DNA of 60,000 nucleotides from Schmidtea polychroa (Eukaryota): contig CM097885.1 of NCBI GenBank assembly GCA_044892525.1, forward strand, positions 31,870,001 to 31,930,000, given 5' to 3'. A program made the translations under genes and the position numbers. The notes below the pieces were generated by a model, which worked only from the letters and a program-made list of their open reading frames with translations, did no database searches and was not told the DNA's origin. Positions 10,330 to 60,000 of this stretch are shown piece after piece. Each line of letters starts with the position of its first letter. The stretch's first letter is position 1.

Positions 10330-50791
<40,462 letters not shown>

Positions 50792-51300
50792 TGTTTTAGA
50801 AATATTAACATTGAGATTAAGACTTAAAAATGTAATAAAAATCGCATTAATTCCAATACTAAATGAATATTTAATTAATCACAATTTTAAAAAACTAATT
50901 ACACAAGGTTTCATAAATGGGTAATACATGCAAATGTTTAATGTTACATAAAAATTAAGAATCATTATAAAAAATTAATTAAAATAAAAAATACAAATAT
51001 CCTACTTAAAAAGAAAAGGTCTTTATTGATTTTTCAATGTTTGTGCGTATAATTTTTTATTCCTCGTCGTAATAATATTATTAATATAATAATAATAAAA
51101 ATAATAATAATAATTATGATTAAAAATAATTATGATTATAATAATATTAAAATAAAAATAATTAAAATAAATATATAAATATTCAAATCAAGAAAAAAAT
51201 GATCTTCATTGATTTTTAAATTTGTCACAATTTAATTAACTTTTACCACTCTAATGCCCAATTTTTTTATCGTCGCGCAAAAACTAAAATCTAAAATGTG

Positions 51301-51545
51301 ATAATGCACACAAACACATGCAAACTTTCGATATATAGAACTTTATTTTAGAGAATTTTAGGAAAAAAAGATCACTGAAAATGTTTTTAAATGTTTTTTT
51401 AAAGAAACAACGTTAAATTGTATTGAAAATGACGAAATATCCCCGTAAGAATTATTTTTGGGTTAAAATTAAGTTAAATATTCATAAGAATTTCTGATAT
51501 TTGTTTGAGAAATGTTTTAGAAAAATACATTTTGGGCGATTGACA
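51301..51545. repeat. Dispersed repeat, inverted copy of about 2636-2895
   Basis: Reverse-complement alignment by eye (tatcagaaattcttatgaatatttaacttaatttt and flanks). The giant LTR starts about 12 nt after it. Confidence 0.8.
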
Positions 51546-51557
51546 TATTAAAATAAT

Positions 51558-54500
51558 TGTTGGGCTGAGTCGGAAAATCAATTTGGGAAACTAAGAAAGT
51601 AAAATAAGCAAGAGATTAAAAGAAAACAAAATAAAATAAACAAATTTAGGAATACAATAAAATAAGATATAAAAACAATAATTAGAAAATAAGAATTAAA
51701 ACAAAAAATATAAAACTAAGAAAAATTAAAATAGGACAATAGAATGACGAAAAATAACGTAAAATGTAGCAAATAATAAGGAAATCAAAGAAATTAAATA
51801 AAAACATAAAAAAAATAAAGAAAATAGGAAGAAATAACTCAAAAACAAGGAAAATAAATTAAAATAATAAAATTAAGCGGTACTCAATTCTGATTGGTCC
51901 GCGTAAATAGAAAATTAATATATAAGCAGACATTAAAATCATAATAAGTACCGTTAATCCAACAATTGCAATAGGTAAGTATTTTAACTACCGTTAATTA
52001 CCGTTAATCCAACAATTGCAATAGAAACAACAACCCACAGCTAACAGCCACCGACTTACAGTAGCTTACAAGGACTATTTCAGAAAATCAAGAAACTTCA
52101 ACTAAATCTATACTCTACTCAAGCATCAACCGATTCGACCCAGTGTTTTCGACTCAGCCTATATTGAATACTTGGTAAGGAGTTTTCGTTTTATATTTAG
52201 GTCTATTAAGCAATAATTATGTATATATGCATTAATTATAATTTTTATCTTTAAAATTTTGTTCTCTTTTCGTTTGATTTGAATGCGTTACGTAATTAAA
52301 TGATTTAGTGATTTAACAATAAATGATTTATTATGCATCAGTAATCTTATTATTTGTGATTTTATGCTATTCAAATTTTTCGAGAAACGTGGCGTTGAGA
52401 TACTCCATGTCATGGTGTGAGGTGCCTTCGGGAGCTCAGCCGGTGGACATGGGGTTTTTCAATCACGCAGCTGATTCGGGCCGTAATGTGGGGGCTTCCT
52501 CACGGGTCCGTCGCTGAAGGTGCGACTAAATTCGATAGAAAATCATGCGAGAAGAATAGTGTGGAAGAATGAGTACATGAATTGGAAAAATTTTTGTATA
52601 TTCGCATAGTTATTGAGGGTGTCGCACTATCGTCTCATAACATCGTTTTACTCCGTTTAAATTTTCTCTATCGCCAAAAGATTCAAGTCCTTCGTCAAAA
52701 ACTGTTCAAACGTTAGCAATGTTATGTGTGACCAATTATCGGGGTTCCGGATTTTACTCAAAGTTTAGTCTTACGGTTTCCAGCCAACGAACTTTCGTGA
52801 TTACTCATTTCATCATCTATGAGCTTCTCTTAAAGCTGTAGTTATATCGAATTACGAAAATAAATAGTCTCAAACAATTTTTTAATTAAAAGCACAAATA
52901 ACTCCAATCAGGAAAAATGTAATTTTTAGAAAACAATTTATCGCGATGATGCTTACAGATTAAATATGAACTCTCGGTCTACCGATGAATCGCAATCCGG
53001 AGTTGCATTAAGCAATAAATTTTCAAATCGATAGGAATAGATCGCATATGTTGATGATGACCGAGGGCCACGAGTTGAATTGAGAAATAGTAGTTGAGTG
53101 GTTTTGGAAAAACCGTCCACGAAGTAGAAAAATTTCCATAACAGTGATGCATAGAATTTTAATTTTCCAAAATTTCCCTGAGAGTTCGCATGTCAATAGT
53201 GTGAGAAGCAGGATTTGGGGTGTGTTCACAGCCGATCAATTAGCATTACATGCTACGGAGAAACTACATCTGCATGCATACTCAGACATAAAATATAGCA
53301 TGAGAACACTAGTCAGTGATCGCGATTGATAATAAGTAGGTGAGAGTGAAGCTTCAGGCGATCACACATTTTTAGACTCACGGCAGAGGTTCAATGTAGT
53401 ATATAGACTCACATGCATTATAAATCGCCGGGAATCAGACATAATGTGTCAGCTGAATTACCATCAAGCTAATGACAGACGCTAGATTCTCACCGTTTGG
53501 AAGTAGTAGGCAATAGCCAGATAATTAATTAGGGTTCACTTGCGTGAAGTGGTGTATTCATTTAATCTGAACAAGTTTGGGTTGTGCATGAATAAATGAT
53601 TATAATTTAATTAGAAAGATTCTTATTTATCCTGACTAAATTATTGCAAACAACTTGTAAATGTCTTAATTATCATCAATAAATAATTGGAGGGGAATTA
53701 ATAGAGTCCTGCCTATTATAAATAACAAGTTTCTAAGTTATTGACATAGTTCCATAACAGATCTACACATTATTTGCTTAGGGTAAATCTTTAATTTAAT
53801 CTAAACTACCTTTCCAGGCTGTTTGATCTTTTCAAGTAAACTAATTAATTTTTTAATTTCACTAACTTGTAGTTTCCCTTATCAGGGGTTATACCTTATC
53901 TTCCTTCAGTAAAGCTCTGTATGAATGATCATATGAATGATGACCCAAAGTATACAAGATCTGTAGTATAGGGGATTTCTCTAGGCTAATAAACCCGGTT
54001 TATCTGTAAACTACCTATGGTCAGTAAAGTATGATTGTGACCGGATGAGACGTTCCAATTTGACTTAGATGTAATTTTATTTTTCATCTTCTCTTCCTAG
54101 CCTCTCCAGATGTTACCCAATCCCAAAACCATTCTCAAGCCTTGTTTTTCTTGTGCAGACAAGAATTCGATCATCAGAGACCTACAGGCTCAAATTGGAA
54201 AGTACAAAAGGAAGATAGACGAGCTGGAGGGGACATGGTTTAGTCCCTCCCAGATGAAGGAGACCCGGAAGAAGTTGTATCGAAGTGAGCATTGCCGTGA
54301 TGCACTAATTGCCGAGAGCCGGGCACAGAGGAGCCTGATAAAAGAGCAGTCGGAAGCGCTGCATAAATTATATGTCCAGGCAGCAACCACCAGGAAGATA
54401 GCGAAGATCTCAATTAGTGAAGCCAGCAACCTTTTCCCAGCACACCACGACACTTCTGTCAGGTCTTCATCTCCTCTCAGGAAGTCTTGCCGTGAGTGCG

Positions 54501-55402
54501 TGGAGACCGAGCTTTCTCCCAGAAACCCAGACATTGAAGTCACCGGGACTAGTAAGGTCCAGGCGAACTTTGCATCGGCATCGGCCGTGCAAACACCAGC
54601 AACTTCGAAACCGAAACGTCGGCAACTGTCGCGAGCCGAACGCAAACGGAAACAACGGGAGCGGGCATCGGTCAAGCAGTGTGCATCGTCAACCATCGCT
54701 CCAGTCAGCAGTAACAATAATCCAACCATGGTCGACCTAACAGCCGGGATCTCCGGGCGAGTCATCTCCGCCGCCGGGGTGACATGGAAAGAAAACGCCG
54801 CCGAGTTCTTTGATCTAAACGAGTTACTCGCCGACTCGGAGTGGGAGAAATGAGGATCTCCCCTAAAATTGGCCTCATTCTCTAGAGAAACCAGAAAACT
54901 TGCCGAAATCATTTTTTTATTATCTTTATGTTTTTCTTGTTCTTGTAAATATTGATGTATAAGCTCTCGATGTATTTGCATGATAATGCCGAAAATAAAC
55001 CAGTTTCATTTATATATGCGTTTCGTTTTGTCGTAAAATAGTGAATACGAGATAGGTGAATAGCATTGAGAGTCTCACGAAACGAGGAGCATTAGTCAGT
55101 TAGGGGCATCGCGACGGGCGACAGAGTGAGAAGACGTAAGTCCTTCTATCGGCAGTCGGGGTTAGGAAGTCGAGGCCTCAGTAAGGAGTAGTCCGAAGGA
55201 GCTGGCTCACCTGCTTACTGGCGTCTCGCCGGCATCGCACAGTTCCAACGTGACGCAACTCACGGGTGCTATGCTGGAGTGTAGGTTATGTACGGGTCCT
55301 GCTCAGCGATGACAAAATAAAGACGAGCGAAATCGATGTGGGCATTTCATCCTCTAGATTAAACGCGGGGGGGGGGGTCATCTGAGTAGTTAGCCGCCAA
55401 CA
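51558..55402 (+). repeat. Putative 3.85-kb 5' LTR
   Basis: Inverted termini TGTTGG/CCAACA with a PBS 7 nt downstream. ATTGG at 51893 and TATA at 51919. Confidence 0.7.
54110..54853 (+). CDS. LTR-encoded CxxC/coiled-coil protein with basic NLS-like patch and acidic tail
   Basis: Intact 247-aa ORF with TATA at 53717, donor at 53783, acceptors at 54100/54109 and AATAAA at 54994. Confidence 0.7.
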   Translation: MLPNPKTILKPCFSCADKNSIIRDLQAQIGKYKRKIDELEGTWFSPSQMKETRKKLYRSEHCRDALIAESRAQRSLIKEQSEALHKLYVQAATTRKIAKISISEASNLFPAHHDTSVRSSSPLRKSCRECVETELSPRNPDIEVTGTSKVQANFASASAVQTPATSKPKRRQLSRAERKRKQRERASVKQCASSTIAPVSSNNNPTMVDLTAGISGRVISAAGVTWKENAAEFFDLNELLADSEWEK

Positions 55403-55409
55403 TAATTTT

Positions 55410-55429
55410 TGGGGGCTCAGTCGGGATTT
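55410..55429 (+). promoter_or_regulatory. Primer-binding site, tRNA-Pro-like
   Basis: TGGGGGCTCAGTCGGGATTT compared with the canonical tRNA-Pro PBS TGGGGGCTCGTCCGGGATTT. Confidence 0.8.
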
Positions 55430-55740
55430 AGATAAAAATTTCCGTTGACTAGTGTAAGCTTGGCCGGGATATTATTGAATTTTTGTCGAACTGTGTGAAT
55501 TCACCGAGAGGATCGATTCCCATTGATGGGCGAGTGCAAATTGACTAATGCTTATCGAGTCTTATTATGAAACTACGGTTAAAAAATGATAAAATTAAAT
55601 ATATAACTAAAGTAAATTTAATAATGGGGAAGTAAGATAAAAGCAAAATAAATTATAACGATTTAAAAGGGAAAATGTTTGATGAAACAACCATGGAATC
55701 AGCTGTATATTATTAAAATATTTTCTTTTCTCTAATAGAC

Positions 55741-56226
55741 ATGACGGAGTTCGCAGAGCAGATGCAACAATTAATCAATTTCATTGATATAGAAAACGAT
55801 TCCATAAAAACGCTCATACACAAAAGAGAGAGGATTAAGAGCATACAATTACAAACAATGGGACAAGCACCAGTCGTACCTAACCATATGTTATTAGCCA
55901 CAGGTTTAAGTCGTACAGAGGGGAAAGTAAATCATGAAACAGTATACCAGTGGTATCAGGAAAGATTGAGACACCCTGCATTGAACCTGGAATACCATCG
56001 ACTACGAGATCAATTAGATACCATACCCGACATAATTGAACAGAAGATACAAGAGAAACTCACTAAATTACGAACCTGTCTGTCTTGCAAACTTCGTCCT
56101 ATTCGCGTACTGTTCTTGCCTTGTGGACACCTCAGTCACTGCGAAGAATGTGTGAGCGATTTAAAGCGATGCACGATATGTAAGCATGAGATAAAAGAAA
56201 CTCATATGGTTTATTATGGTGAATGA
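55741..56226 (+). CDS. IAP/MDM2-type C-terminal RING finger protein (putative E3 ligase)
   Basis: CLSCKLRPIRVLFLPCGHLSHCEECVSDLKRCTICKHEI near the C-terminus. Acceptor at 55738, AATAAA at 56286. Confidence 0.85.
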   Translation: MTEFAEQMQQLINFIDIENDSIKTLIHKRERIKSIQLQTMGQAPVVPNHMLLATGLSRTEGKVNHETVYQWYQERLRHPALNLEYHRLRDQLDTIPDIIEQKIQEKLTKLRTCLSCKLRPIRVLFLPCGHLSHCEECVSDLKRCTICKHEIKETHMVYYGE

Positions 56227-56708
56227 AATTGTTAAAGATACAATAACATTGATAAACATCGAATCATTACTGACGGTTGAGTGAGAATAAATGTAAATGT
56301 TGTATGGAATATTATCAAAGTATTAATTTTTATTTGTTATGACGAATAAAATTTTGTTATGAACTGAGTAATTTATGGCTTTTAACCCTAATTTTTTGCT
56401 GTGAATCAAACGAAAAGAAAACTAAACTAACGTGGAATTAGTCCCAATATAGGCTGTAAGGGTACAAACCGAGCCACCTTCGGGCGGTACGTTCTATCAT
56501 AAGAAAAACCAATTGGGAGGGGATAACCGATCAACCTAAGTGAGGAGCGTAGGGCGGGGTACCATCGCAAATGATGTGAAGTTTCTGCGGCGTGACTGAT
56601 CACCATGCCAATGTGGAAATGGATCATCGCGATCGTCGTGCGTTTTGAGCAAGGGGGGAAAGGGGAAAACACTTCCAAGCGGTAGAAGCAGGTCGACCAA
56701 TTAATTAA

Positions 56709-56910
56709 CATAGAGCTGACGTAGTGAGGCAGCCATAGAGCTGACGTAGTGAGGCAGCCATAGAGCTGACGTAGTGAGGCAGCCATAGAGCTGACGTAGT
56801 GAGGCAGCCATAGAGCTGACGTAGTGAGGCAGCCATAGCGCTGACATAGTGAGGCAGCCATAGAGCTGACGTAGTGAGACAACCATAGAGCTGACGTAGT
56901 GGGAGAGCCA
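56709..56910 (+). repeat. 25-bp tandem repeat x8 (catagagctgacgtagtgaggcagc)
   Basis: Seen directly. There are no unique spacers. Confidence 0.95.
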
Positions 56911-58289
56911 CCAGAACTAAATAGTGGGATAACAGAATGAAAATAAAAATTGAAATGAGATAAACAGTAAAGCTGAACCACAGCAAAGTAGAATATTAAA
57001 GCCGACTAAGAAAGGAAATTGAGAGAAAATGAGTAAAAATTTGTTCGTAAGATTAGAATAAGAGAGGAATAAACGAGCTCGTAATAGATGATAATAAAAC
57101 GTTAGTGAGAAAGAGAAATAGGAAAGGAAATTAAGAGGATAGTGAGAGAAAATAATTAACTAATTAAAGGGATCCCAGTAGAGTAGAGAAACTCTACAGA
57201 ATTTTTGGGTTTAAACCGGGAAGATGATTTTTTTTGGTTCCAGAGTAGAACCCAGTGAGAGAATAACCGATACGGGAAGATAAGTAAACCAGCGACAATA
57301 GCGCAAAAGGATTAAGAAAATAAGGGGGGTAATAAGCAGTGACCGACAACGACCTATTCATATTATAAGTATTAAAGATAGATAATTATTCCGACTAAAT
57401 AGATAATTGTTACTACCCCATATAGATAATTTAAAATCGACGAAAAATACGGGCTGATGGGAGATTATAACCCGCGAAAGTAATTGTATAAAAATAGGGG
57501 AAGCACAAACAGAAACCTAAAAGGTGTCTGTGTTTGAATGTTGCAGAAAGAATGATGAAGTCGTGTAAGCAGAAGCAACACGAGATCATTTTTTCATTTT
57601 AGATAGCAAACCAATCCAGTCAACCAAGCCGATCCAGAACCTGCACAAAAGGAATTCGAAGAAACCAACAACCAACCAGAGATAATCAATTCAGAACCCG
57701 CTCAATAGGAGTAACACAACCCGAAGATTGTAATAACGGAAGACGATACAAATAACGACATCTCCAACTTCGAACGAATCACCGATCTATTCAGTCTCGT
57801 TGTATTAGCAGCCATCAGCCAAGGACTCCTAAATCTCCTCAGAATATCATTAGCAGAAGCGTATAGAATACTCTTCGAAGGAAACACTATCAGAACCGAA
57901 CTCGCCCAATTCAGTAGCCGCTAACCGTAGAAAAATCCACGAGAAAAGACAGAGAAACGTAAGAAAGAATCACGGATAAACCCAGCCTTAGATCTTCAAG
58001 TAAGCCAGGAGACGTATTATTTTCAGGAGACGAATTAGAACAACTCAAAAGAGGACGATCAATTAGACATCAGAGAGGGATATCACAAGGAGCAAGAAGA
58101 ACCAACAAAATACCGATATACGATCAAGAAAACCCCACAGCCTGATACACACCCAGTCGATCTAGAAGCAGAGATAGTCTATCCGATATAACAAACAACC
58201 TAACCGCGTCAACAGAAGCACTATCTGCCAATAGCCTGAGTACATCGTTGGATAATTTGAAAGAAACGATAGAAATTCAAGAACCAATC

Positions 58290-60000
58290 ATGACGAGTGT
58301 GGTAAAAACCGACGAGTATAAAGAAAAATTTAGAGGTGAACCGTTCAACGGAAATGCAAACAAGTTGGCGACATTCATAACCAACTTTGAAGTCTATATC
58401 GATGTGTGTGGATGGACATCCGAAGCAGTTAGCAAAAGGATGCCGTTATTTTTGTGCGATAGCGCATTAGAAGTATATTTAGAGGCTAAAGAAAGAAATA
58501 CGAAATTGGATAAATGGGATGATATCAAGACATTCCTGAAGAAAACATTTGGAGCTAGCAAACCAATAAATCAAGCACTTGGCGAACTGGCAAATCGGAA
58601 ACAAAGAGCAAATGAATCAATTACATTATACGCCAGCGAATTGCGGAGATTAGCAAAGAAAGCAATGATTGGAAATTTGCCAGAGGAAAATTTGATCGGC
58701 TATTTCATAGAGGGATTACGCCGAGAAGAAGTGAGAGCGTCTGTAGGATGTCAAATGTGCGCAACATTAGAAGAGGCCATAGATTGGGCTACCCGATGCG
58801 AGCTCCATCTTCCAGCACAAATGAATATCATGCAAGAGGATGGGAGGATAGCAACAGCCACGGTAAAAACGGATAATGGAGATAGCAACAACCAAGGACC
58901 AAAAATGAACCAATTTATACCCGGAGCACATCAAATTTTCAAACCACCACAAGGACGATCAAATGGGAATAATAGTGATCGCAATAACCTGAATAATTGA
59001 AACAATTTTAATAATCGACGAAATACGAATGATAACAAACAGTGCCGAACATGTGGTAAATCAGGGCATTGGGACAGAGATTGTTATAGAAATGCAAATT
59101 GTAATCGTTGCGGACGACGGGGGCATACGGAGGGTATATGTCAAGCAAGAGCGTGTTACAACTGCGGACAATCAGGACATATCTCGAGAGAATGCCGAGA
59201 AAGAAACCAACAACAACGACAACCTCAACGAAATAATAATTATACACCAAATCCGCAACGACAAAATAACCTCAGTGAAGGAAAACAAATGAACGTCATG
59301 CAAGAAATTTCTCAAATGAAACAGATGATGCATCAATTAATGCGACCCAGATCAGAACCGGCACCTCAGCAAACACAGAATATACGTATGATGAGAAGCA
59401 CCGAAAACATCAACGACTACGAGAGACAGCAACACGCGCAAGATTGGCAACGATTGCAGGCGGAGGAAGAGAGGATAAAACAAGAACGCAACCAGCAACG
59501 ACAAGAACAACCATTTCGAATAAATATGTTGAAACTGGTAAAGGACATAAAAAATCAATATTGTTACAACTATGGGAAAGACCCAAGAATTGTACCTATG
59601 ACCGAACCAGAAAAAGCGAAAGAAACGACAACAGAAATCAGAGCAGAAAACCTAACAACGATACTGAAAGGAAACCAAAGAATTCAGAAAATATTCTGGA
59701 AAAAGATAAAAGATAAAATCGAAAAAGAACACGATAAAGCGAAAACAGAAATAAAAGATGAAAACAACAAAAACAAGGAACAACCCAGTCCTCTAAACCA
59801 CAAAATGCTGCAAGAATTGGAATCTGAAGAAACAACGATATTCGAAAACAAGAAACTAAAACGAGTACCAAGGATGAGAAATTTGCGAATCAACATGATG
59901 AAAAAGACAAAAGATACAACGTCGTCAGACGAAGATGAAGACTATGTGAGCAGTTTAGGTGGAGAAATACTACAATTAAACGAAGCCAGCGAACCTCAAA
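58290..60000 (+). CDS. gag: Gag polyprotein with three CCHC knuckles, one in-frame TGA at 58998-59000, open to the window end
   Basis: FNGNANKLATFITNFE, LFLCDSALEVY, RKQRANESITLY. Same frame after the TGA gives CRTCGKSGHWDRDC, CNRCGRRGHTEGIC and CYNCGQSGHISREC. Confidence 0.9.

Follow-up and report, generated by a model that had tools for sequence, protein, structure and literature searches.

Organisation of the locus

The window analysed here, a stretch of 60,000 nucleotides from Schmidtea polychroa, carries towards its right-hand end an open, intronless reading frame of 161 amino acids (55741-56226, forward strand) with a RING domain close to its C-terminus. The features that surround this frame, all on the forward strand, are as follows.

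51558..55402, +: candidate 5' LTR of 3,845 bp, TGTTGG ... CCAACA, with 6-bp perfect inverted ends
54110..54853, +: 247-aa ORF from the ORF list, with CxxC and a coiled coil, inside the candidate LTR
54958..54999, +: TATAA (54958) and AATAAA (54994), possible U3/R region of the candidate LTR
55410..55428, +: PBS-like sequence TGGGGGCTCAGTCGGGATT, containing an exact 9-mer found once in the window
55721..55738, +: splice-acceptor-like tract with a TAG end, 2 nt upstream of the RING ATG, from a ranking by pyrimidines
55741..56226, +: accessory ORF of 161 aa, with a helical N-terminal part, the RING at aa 113-147 and a 13-residue tail containing Y158
56286..56350, +: two AATAAA (56286, 56345) 3' of the RING-ORF stop, at chance level
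56709..56901, +: 25-bp tandem repeat, 7.7 copies with 96% matches, between the RING gene and gag
57585..57606, +: acceptor-like sites (57602, 57606) upstream of the gag region, of putative role
58290..59000, +: gag capsid region (Pfam Retrotrans_gag and Ty3_capsid) with an in-frame stop at 58998-59000
59001..60000, +: the same gag frame past the stop, with three CCHC knuckles (Pfam zf-CCHC) and the beginning of a long ORF1 that runs to the window end

The 161-aa frame contains the FLPCGH motif and eight residues that bind zinc, C113, C116, C128, H130, C134, C137, C144 and C147, arranged as C3HC4. The earlier note on this DNA, made from the letters alone, had described an intact ORF ending in such a RING, and this description holds. 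The HMM comparison that it proposed gives zf-C3HC4_3 at 43.1 bits (E 3.7e-11) in the Pfam search, above the cut-off of 27 bits. As the note had also observed, there is no BIR: none was matched in the 161-aa ORF at E values up to 10, and none is listed for the 11 members of the RING family described below. The intactness of the frame does not serve as evidence of selection in this copy: the neighbouring gag has a single stop over some 1.7 kb, and a stretch of 0.5 kb would mostly be open in any case.

The first structure model of the ORF has a mean pLDDT of 55 and is poor beyond the RING, and long helices are predicted ahead of the RING in the models of both this ORF and its relative P0093. Residues 1-108 gave no usable match in the ESM Atlas, the N-terminal 100 residues of P0093 matched no PDB sequence, and a word-indexed search with the 161-aa ORF alone confirmed none of seven candidates. 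An exact look-up of ten window proteins in the protein collection found none of them. Among the 16 rows listed by a search of sequencing runs, eight contain part of 54000-60000, and no RNA source is among the rows listed.

Anatomy and expression of the element

The left border of the candidate LTR is suggested by a TGTTGG that occurs once in 51100-55410 and starts about 15 nt beyond the end of homology to a dispersed host repeat (51385-51543, with an inverted copy at 2635-2793). At the right border, CCAACA ends at 55402, 7 nt ahead of the PBS-like site. No second LTR occurs within the window, and 51558-55402 stays a candidate LTR since its partner lies past the window end. The sequence at 55410-55428 is a candidate PBS by its letters and position, and TGGGGGCTCAGTCGGGATT presumably resembles a proline-tRNA PBS. 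There is no tRNA in the window, and Rfam gave no match across 51500-60000. The start of the candidate LTR (51558-51575) resembles the PBS-like site, GGGCT-AGTCGG being present in both.

Of all acceptors in the element, the one that scores best ends at 54109, directly ahead of the 247-aa ORF inside the candidate LTR. This ORF has no Pfam match above cut-off and is possibly a second accessory gene; lying ahead of TATAA and AATAAA, it may be encoded in U3 and expressed from the 3' LTR. A likeness to the 3' ORF of the other element in the window was considered and rejected, as 62 of 1000 shuffles scored as high.

Beyond the RING gene follow in order the 25-bp tandem array, an A-rich spacer, an acceptor-like site and gag, which Pfam recognises by Retrotrans_gag (E 9e-12) and zf-CCHC (E 3e-13). 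Its capsid is 58% identical to that of P0160 and 56% to that of P0161. Past the stop at 58998-59000, the stretch 59001-60000 remains colinear with residues 464-797 of P0160 (45%), and the gag region as a whole aligns across the stop (49%, 576 aa), which indicates that this copy of the element is broken there. The placement of the RING ORF between PBS and gag, as given in the earlier note, thus stands with a PBS-like site at 55410 and gag from 58290, the LTR itself being a candidate.

Eight ATGs separate the PBS-like site from the RING ATG, so splicing is the likely route to translation of the RING ORF. The acceptor ending at 55738 has 14 pyrimidines out of 18 and is joint third among the 278 YAG sites on the forward strand of 51558-60000, five of which reach at least 14. 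On the T-rich reverse strand 14 pyrimidines are reached by 12 of 153 sites; the motif alone is therefore not rare, and it is the placement of the 55738 site that counts. Five donor candidates of the form GT[AG]AG lie in 54950-55738. The ORF had been credited with its own acceptor and its own poly(A) signal. The acceptor looks sound by its rank and by its position 2 nt from the ATG; the poly(A) signal is not, being no better than chance in 8.6 kb (51400-60000) with 23 AATAAA.

Relatives of the RING gene and their linkage to gag

A search of 1.84 billion representatives with the ORF gave 938 matches, and among the best 150 of these most cover the RING only. One of them, P0002 (160 aa), matches over nearly the whole length. 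A profile search then yielded four matches among 353 candidates, with P0162 and P0163 newly added. The full-length relatives now comprise P0002, P0152 and P0162, each of 160 aa, and P0093, P0153 and P0163, each of 154 aa, and all six align end to end with the 161-aa ORF at 24-27% identity. Together with the ORF they form a family of seven proteins, to be counted as three lineages and not as seven independent events. The family alignments show no variation at R75, E153, Y158 or the zinc ligands.

The connection with the retroelement comes from P0011 (UPI000601FDB3, 517 aa), in which an N-terminal homologue of the RING ORF is followed by a gag 45% identical to that of the window. Placed on the window, P0011 aligns in the same order and on the same strand with 55762-56160 (26%, E 5e-14) and 58302-58961 (45%, E 2e-57). 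The non-RING parts of P0011 and of P0002 align with the 161-aa ORF better than each of 1000 shuffles. We read P0011, from its sequence, as an automatic gene model drawn across two genes of a diverged sister element, and it is the one protein out of eight related ones for which linkage to gag is known. Since it joins a homologue of the ORF to a gag only 45% identical in the same order, the RING ORF is very probably cargo of the element family, in keeping with the earlier note and not with a host gene outside the element.

Five looser relatives share the R75, E153 and Y158 positions in the multiple alignment. These proteins (P0017, P0038, P0068, P0076 and P0151) lack a BIR, are 128-198 aa long and combine a helical part with the invariant Arg and an IAP-type RING that is degenerate, four of them having a GY/GF loop; perhaps they are the cargo of sister elements. 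Pairwise, the N-terminal parts of P0017, P0038 and P0068 showed no similarity to the 161-aa ORF (261-705 of 1000 shuffles as high), and their membership is weaker because they are joined through the multiple alignment only.

Scans with the gag profile confirmed a gag in none of 44 viral and none of 497 metagenome stretches. Scans with the RING profile provided 88 loci, eight of them viral and the other 80 the top-ranked among 509 metagenome matches. None of the 88 has gag or pol nearby, many have a BIR, and none matches the N-terminal profile of the family (best E 0.83). As ordinary RINGs devoid of the family N-terminus they are no test of linkage and serve as controls only. A BIR is likewise absent from five gag relatives of 631-1602 aa and from the part of the polyprotein inside the window, which ends at 60000. 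The gag relatives, up to 1602 aa, contain gag and knuckles only, with a weak ubiquitin-like match in P0160 (E 0.69).

Nature of the RING and of the region ahead of it

By sequence, family profile and fold, the cIAP RINGs are the best matches among solved structures. The family profile scores cIAP2 at 64 bits and MYLIP at 43, with MDM2 chains at 23.5 or less and MDM4 chains at 19.9 or less. This bears out the assignment to the IAP type made in the earlier note and sets aside its MDM2-like alternative, the ligands being in C3HC4 order. The RING of MDM2 and MDMX is of the C2H2C4 type, a ligand pattern different from C3HC4. As in IAP (BIRC) proteins, the 161-aa ORF closes with a C3HC4 RING of IAP type and a short tail. 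IAPs have in addition at least one BIR, which is lacking here, and the protein is not an IAP by definition.

In a RING tree of 51 rows and 62 columns the family clusters, with 2 changes against 9.4 when shuffled. It falls outside the sampled group of BIR-bearing IAPs and is not separated from the Mind bomb RINGs; a single clade is not rejected (p-AU 0.31). Descent of the RING from an IAP gene appears likely from these comparisons.

A remnant of a UBA domain before the RING would favour such a descent. UBA domains have three helices with an MGF loop (available part of PMC3240630). The model of P0093 (mean pLDDT 78) places three helices, themselves at pLDDT 83-91, around an FGY loop. Its helical region superposes on residues 632-684 of USP5, which we take to be a UBA, with a middling Z of 4.7 (rmsd 2.6 over 53 residues). 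Against a profile of IAP UBAs built for this analysis, with members confirmed as PF21290, P0093 scores above 200 of 200 shuffles; comparison of profiles gives E 0.0007 with a probability of only 26%. The 161-aa ORF itself is at chance level on this profile (15 of 200 shuffles as high), and the Pfam UBA was found in none of 11 family members. The N-terminal part of the ORF is possibly a decayed UBA followed by a coiled coil.

The surface that contacts E2~ubiquitin

In cIAP1, E2~ubiquitin is engaged by V573 and M575, which touch the E2, by the linchpin R606, and by R614 and F616 of the partner's tail acting in trans (available part of PMC6349121). The equivalents in the 161-aa ORF are S115, K117, K148, M156 and Y158. 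Of what marks an active cIAP-type RING, the ORF thus has the eight zinc ligands and the tail aromatic, and lacks the hydrophobic E2 contact (S115, K117) and the linchpin Arg (K148).

Two controls place this pattern in context. The first consists of 58 distinct RINGs, many of them near relatives, left from the 88 loci after removal of duplicates and of loci missed by the pattern. The second comprises 33 BIR-bearing matches of the 161-aa ORF and is biased towards resembling it. The linchpin Arg occurs in none of the seven family proteins, which have four Lys and three Asp, against 54 of 58 in the first control and 18 of 33 in the second. Conversely, Lys or Arg occupies the M575 position in all seven, against 1 of 58 and 7 of 33. 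In the first control V or I is found at the V573 position in 57 of 58 RINGs, and M at the M575 position in 48 of 58. A hydrophobic residue at the V573 position is kept in six of the seven family proteins and lost only in the present copy (S115). The tail Tyr is kept in seven of seven, in tails of 12-13 residues, and the tail aromatic is invariant in 11 of 11.

Loss of the linchpin Arg together with retention of the tail aromatic that acts in trans is, as far as residues can tell, an MDMX-like pattern. MdmX binds no E2 and touches ubiquitin by its tail alone, and Mdm2 with a linchpin Lys is defective (both from the available part of PMC6465955). With its catalytic surface worn in this way, the protein looks more like a partner or decoy of the host's own regulator than like a working enzyme.

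Comparison with known systems

The closest precedent is offered by the Burro / GYPSM1 elements, giant planarian retroelements of gypsy-like type. According to the part of the 2019 review available to us (PMC6431247), they encode a giant polyprotein with BIR, ankyrin and MATH domains, BCL2, env and PR-RT-RH-IN, for a total of more than 30 kb; Ubi/SUMO-like domains are reported too, one species has an accessory ORF upstream, and the legend of the figure with the Burro maps indicates tandem repeats. The earlier note had credited these elements with extra host-like domains; BIR, BCL2 and MATH are indeed published for them, as is the upstream accessory ORF. As described there, their gag has retrotrans_gag and two or three CCHC knuckles, which the window element matches with three. 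The long ORF1, the tandem repeats, the upstream accessory ORF and the apoptosis or ubiquitin cargo are further likenesses. The upstream accessory ORF, found in some Burro / GYPSM1 members, is present in both the window element and P0011. Burro elements have long LTRs, and the window element has a single candidate of 3,845 bp. They differ in the accessory domain, the upstream ORF of D. tigrina being MATH_TRAF_C (same part of PMC6431247) and that of the window a RING. The "AIR1 RING Zn-finger" of Burro1 probably corresponds to the gag knuckles.

The RINGs of cIAP1, cIAP2, XIAP and BIRC7 (PDB 6hpr, 3eb5, 4ic2, 4auq) have in common with the 161-aa ORF the pre-RING helix, FxPCGH, the ligand spacing and the tail aromatic. 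Unlike these proteins the ORF has no BIR and no CARD, its UBA is at most decayed, and S, K, K and M stand at the positions of cIAP1 V573, M575, R606 and R614. MDMX (MDM4) also keeps a linchpin Lys and a tail aromatic and acts through a partner (available part of PMC6465955). This is a functional analogy only, and MDMX is not a member of the family, with MDM4 at 19.9 bits or less against 64 for cIAP2 and an unlike N-terminal part. Among viruses, baculovirus IAP-3 and the RING proteins of iridoviruses and giant viruses, whether IAPs or RING-only, are likewise IAP-type RINGs borne by mobile elements, and the top fold matches in the viral library come from this group. These matches rest on the RING, with TM about 0.3 over the query, and the carrier in the window is an LTR retroelement. 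Baculoviral IAPs, moreover, carry BIRs.

Possible functions

The explanation that we tentatively prefer, at a little under even chances, is a Burro-like accessory gene whose weak or inactive RING pairs with a host ligase of IAP type, in the manner of MDMX. The RING ORF would be the accessory gene of a Burro-like Ty3/gypsy element, expressed from a spliced subgenomic mRNA that would start at the LTR promoter and join a donor near the LTR end or the PBS to the acceptor at 55738. Its product would be an IAP-like ligase of which the C-terminal half alone is left, without BIR: a helical and perhaps UBA-derived part, a coiled coil, the RING and the tail. The zinc fold is kept, and so is the tail aromatic, which dimeric RINGs lend to their partner; the residues that hold E2~ubiquitin closed are not. 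Such a protein would have little ligase activity alone. Like MDMX with MDM2, it would pair with a RING of IAP type from the host, and the pairing would change the stability or output of the host ligase in cells where the element is active.

A protein without BIR should not bind caspases. A host IAP can be stabilised by baculoviral IAPs, and cIAP RINGs on their own can bring about the destruction of other IAPs. The outcome for the cell may be survival, as the earlier note suggests, or death, or a weaker immune signal; neither the absence of a BIR nor the degenerate E2~ubiquitin surface points to one direction.

It is rather unlikely that the protein works independently as an active E3 whose E2 surface is altered. 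Its helical N-terminal part would then choose a target, for instance a factor by which the host silences or restricts the element, and the RING homodimer would ubiquitinate it, much as RING proteins that viruses use as accessories do. An enzyme of this kind would agree with the retention of every one of the eight zinc ligands, of H130 and I146 and of the tail aromatic, with the hydrophobic E2 contact of six family proteins in seven, and with an N-terminal part conserved in length and in one invariant Arg; the linchpin Arg is also absent from 15 of the 33 BIR-bearing proteins. It is harder to reconcile with a linchpin that is Asp in three and Lys in four of the seven and with a basic residue at the M575 position in each, given that cIAP1 depends on these positions (available part of PMC6349121) and that a linchpin Lys is defective in Mdm2 (available part of PMC6465955).

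A split IAP acting for cell survival, a sharper form of the idea in the earlier note, in which the RING protein would pair with a BIR from the element's own polyprotein or stabilise a host IAP during transposition, seems distinctly improbable. No BIR occurs in the window, where the polyprotein is cut at 60000, or in five gag relatives. In favour of a split IAP are the Burro polyproteins reported to have BIR, ankyrin and BCL2-like motifs, a domain being found either in the polyprotein or in an upstream accessory ORF (available part of PMC6431247), the weak Bcl-2-like stretch before env in the other element, and weak UBA hints in relatives such as P0093.

That the ORF belongs to the host, or is a fragment captured once, and lies next to gag by chance with no role for the element, is very unlikely. 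P0011 repeats the order in an element with a gag only 45% identical, and the ORF is intronless and lies between a PBS-like site and gag. Such a coincidence could draw on an LTR unproven without its partner, on six relatives that lack DNA context in contigs of 655-3713 bp, and on the 88 RING loci with no gag or pol nearby, which as ordinary RINGs do not test linkage. Finally, a RING outside ubiquitin chemistry might act as an oligomer or scaffold that binds zinc, for example when particles assemble or RNA is handled. This would fit the degenerate E2 surface and the long predicted helices ahead of the RING, and is extremely improbable given a tail aromatic, the donor-ubiquitin contact in trans of cIAP1, that is invariant in 11 of 11, and tails of 12-13 residues in seven proteins.

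Returning to the MDMX-like pairing, a broader version is rather improbable. An animal LTR retroelement family would have kept, across deep divergence, a stand-alone, spliced "half IAP" turned pseudo-ligase, which either captures a host IAP RING or re-forms an IAP in trans with a BIR cut from the polyprotein of the element; the BIR-less P0017, P0068, P0076, P0151 and P0038 would possibly sit on sister elements. If true, the IAP checkpoint of the host would be the target of an accessory protein from a retrotransposon.

Novelty and significance

Burro elements have been proposed to meddle with host apoptosis and ubiquitination, and their complexity makes them hard to study (2019 review, available part of PMC6431247). 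The theme of apoptosis and ubiquitin cargo is already known, which limits the surprise of the present finding. Our literature searches brought up no stand-alone gene for an IAP-type RING in a retroelement, and section 7 of PMC6431247 mentions none; Grohme 2018, the supplements or Repbase may already describe the ORF. A term search of PMC5408684 returned no mention of a RING, and in the available part of PMC11410931 Burro is mentioned once, without cargo detail. What is new, at the level of residues, is the linchpin Arg missing from seven proteins of seven (three lineages) with the tail aromatic that acts in trans kept in all.

A separate gene of 161 aa with a known fold and a residue-level prediction, weak alone and active via a partner, makes the Burro proposal directly testable. 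If the decoy reading holds, a retrotransposon would turn a virus-style accessory protein on the IAP checkpoint, and would do so in an animal with stem cells that depend on closely controlled cell death.

The other element and further features of the window

A first element lies on the reverse strand at 28503-18280, in Burro order but compact, and is broken at several places. It has a gag with three knuckles, a Bcl-2-like stretch at about 25480-25625, a fusion glycoprotein, protease and RT, RNase H and integrase. The fusion glycoprotein is of Monjiviricetes (mononegavirus) type (E 1e-69) and in frame with protease and RT. This Burro order, together with the low GC of the DNA, fits a planarian-like flatworm as host. 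The Bcl-2-like stretch is weak, with a best E of 0.64, and its 28 PDB matches are all Bcl-2 chains. The suggestion that two elements of this window carry apoptosis- or ubiquitin-related cargo is thus upheld for the RING ORF, and for the first element comes down to this weak stretch.

Behind the integrase of the first element, and on the same strand, lie a 304-aa ORF (18711-19625) that Pfam does not match and that has a hydrophobic segment at its C-terminus, and a frame of 84 codons with CxxC and a coiled coil, preceded by an acceptor-like tract (18280-18534). A repeat of about 1 kb is present in three copies (about 12570-13620, 28880-29920 and 46800-47860), 96-99% alike over the compared blocks. 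The copies adjoin (TA)n runs, and one is just upstream of the gag of the first element; the repeat may be either a solo LTR or a non-autonomous element. The window also contains decayed RNase H and integrase fragments of a further LTR element (30000-30560, reverse strand), a Piwi-domain exon of a host Argonaute-family gene (35370-35693, reverse strand) and an ORF with Tc5-type DNA binding (36821-37231, forward strand).
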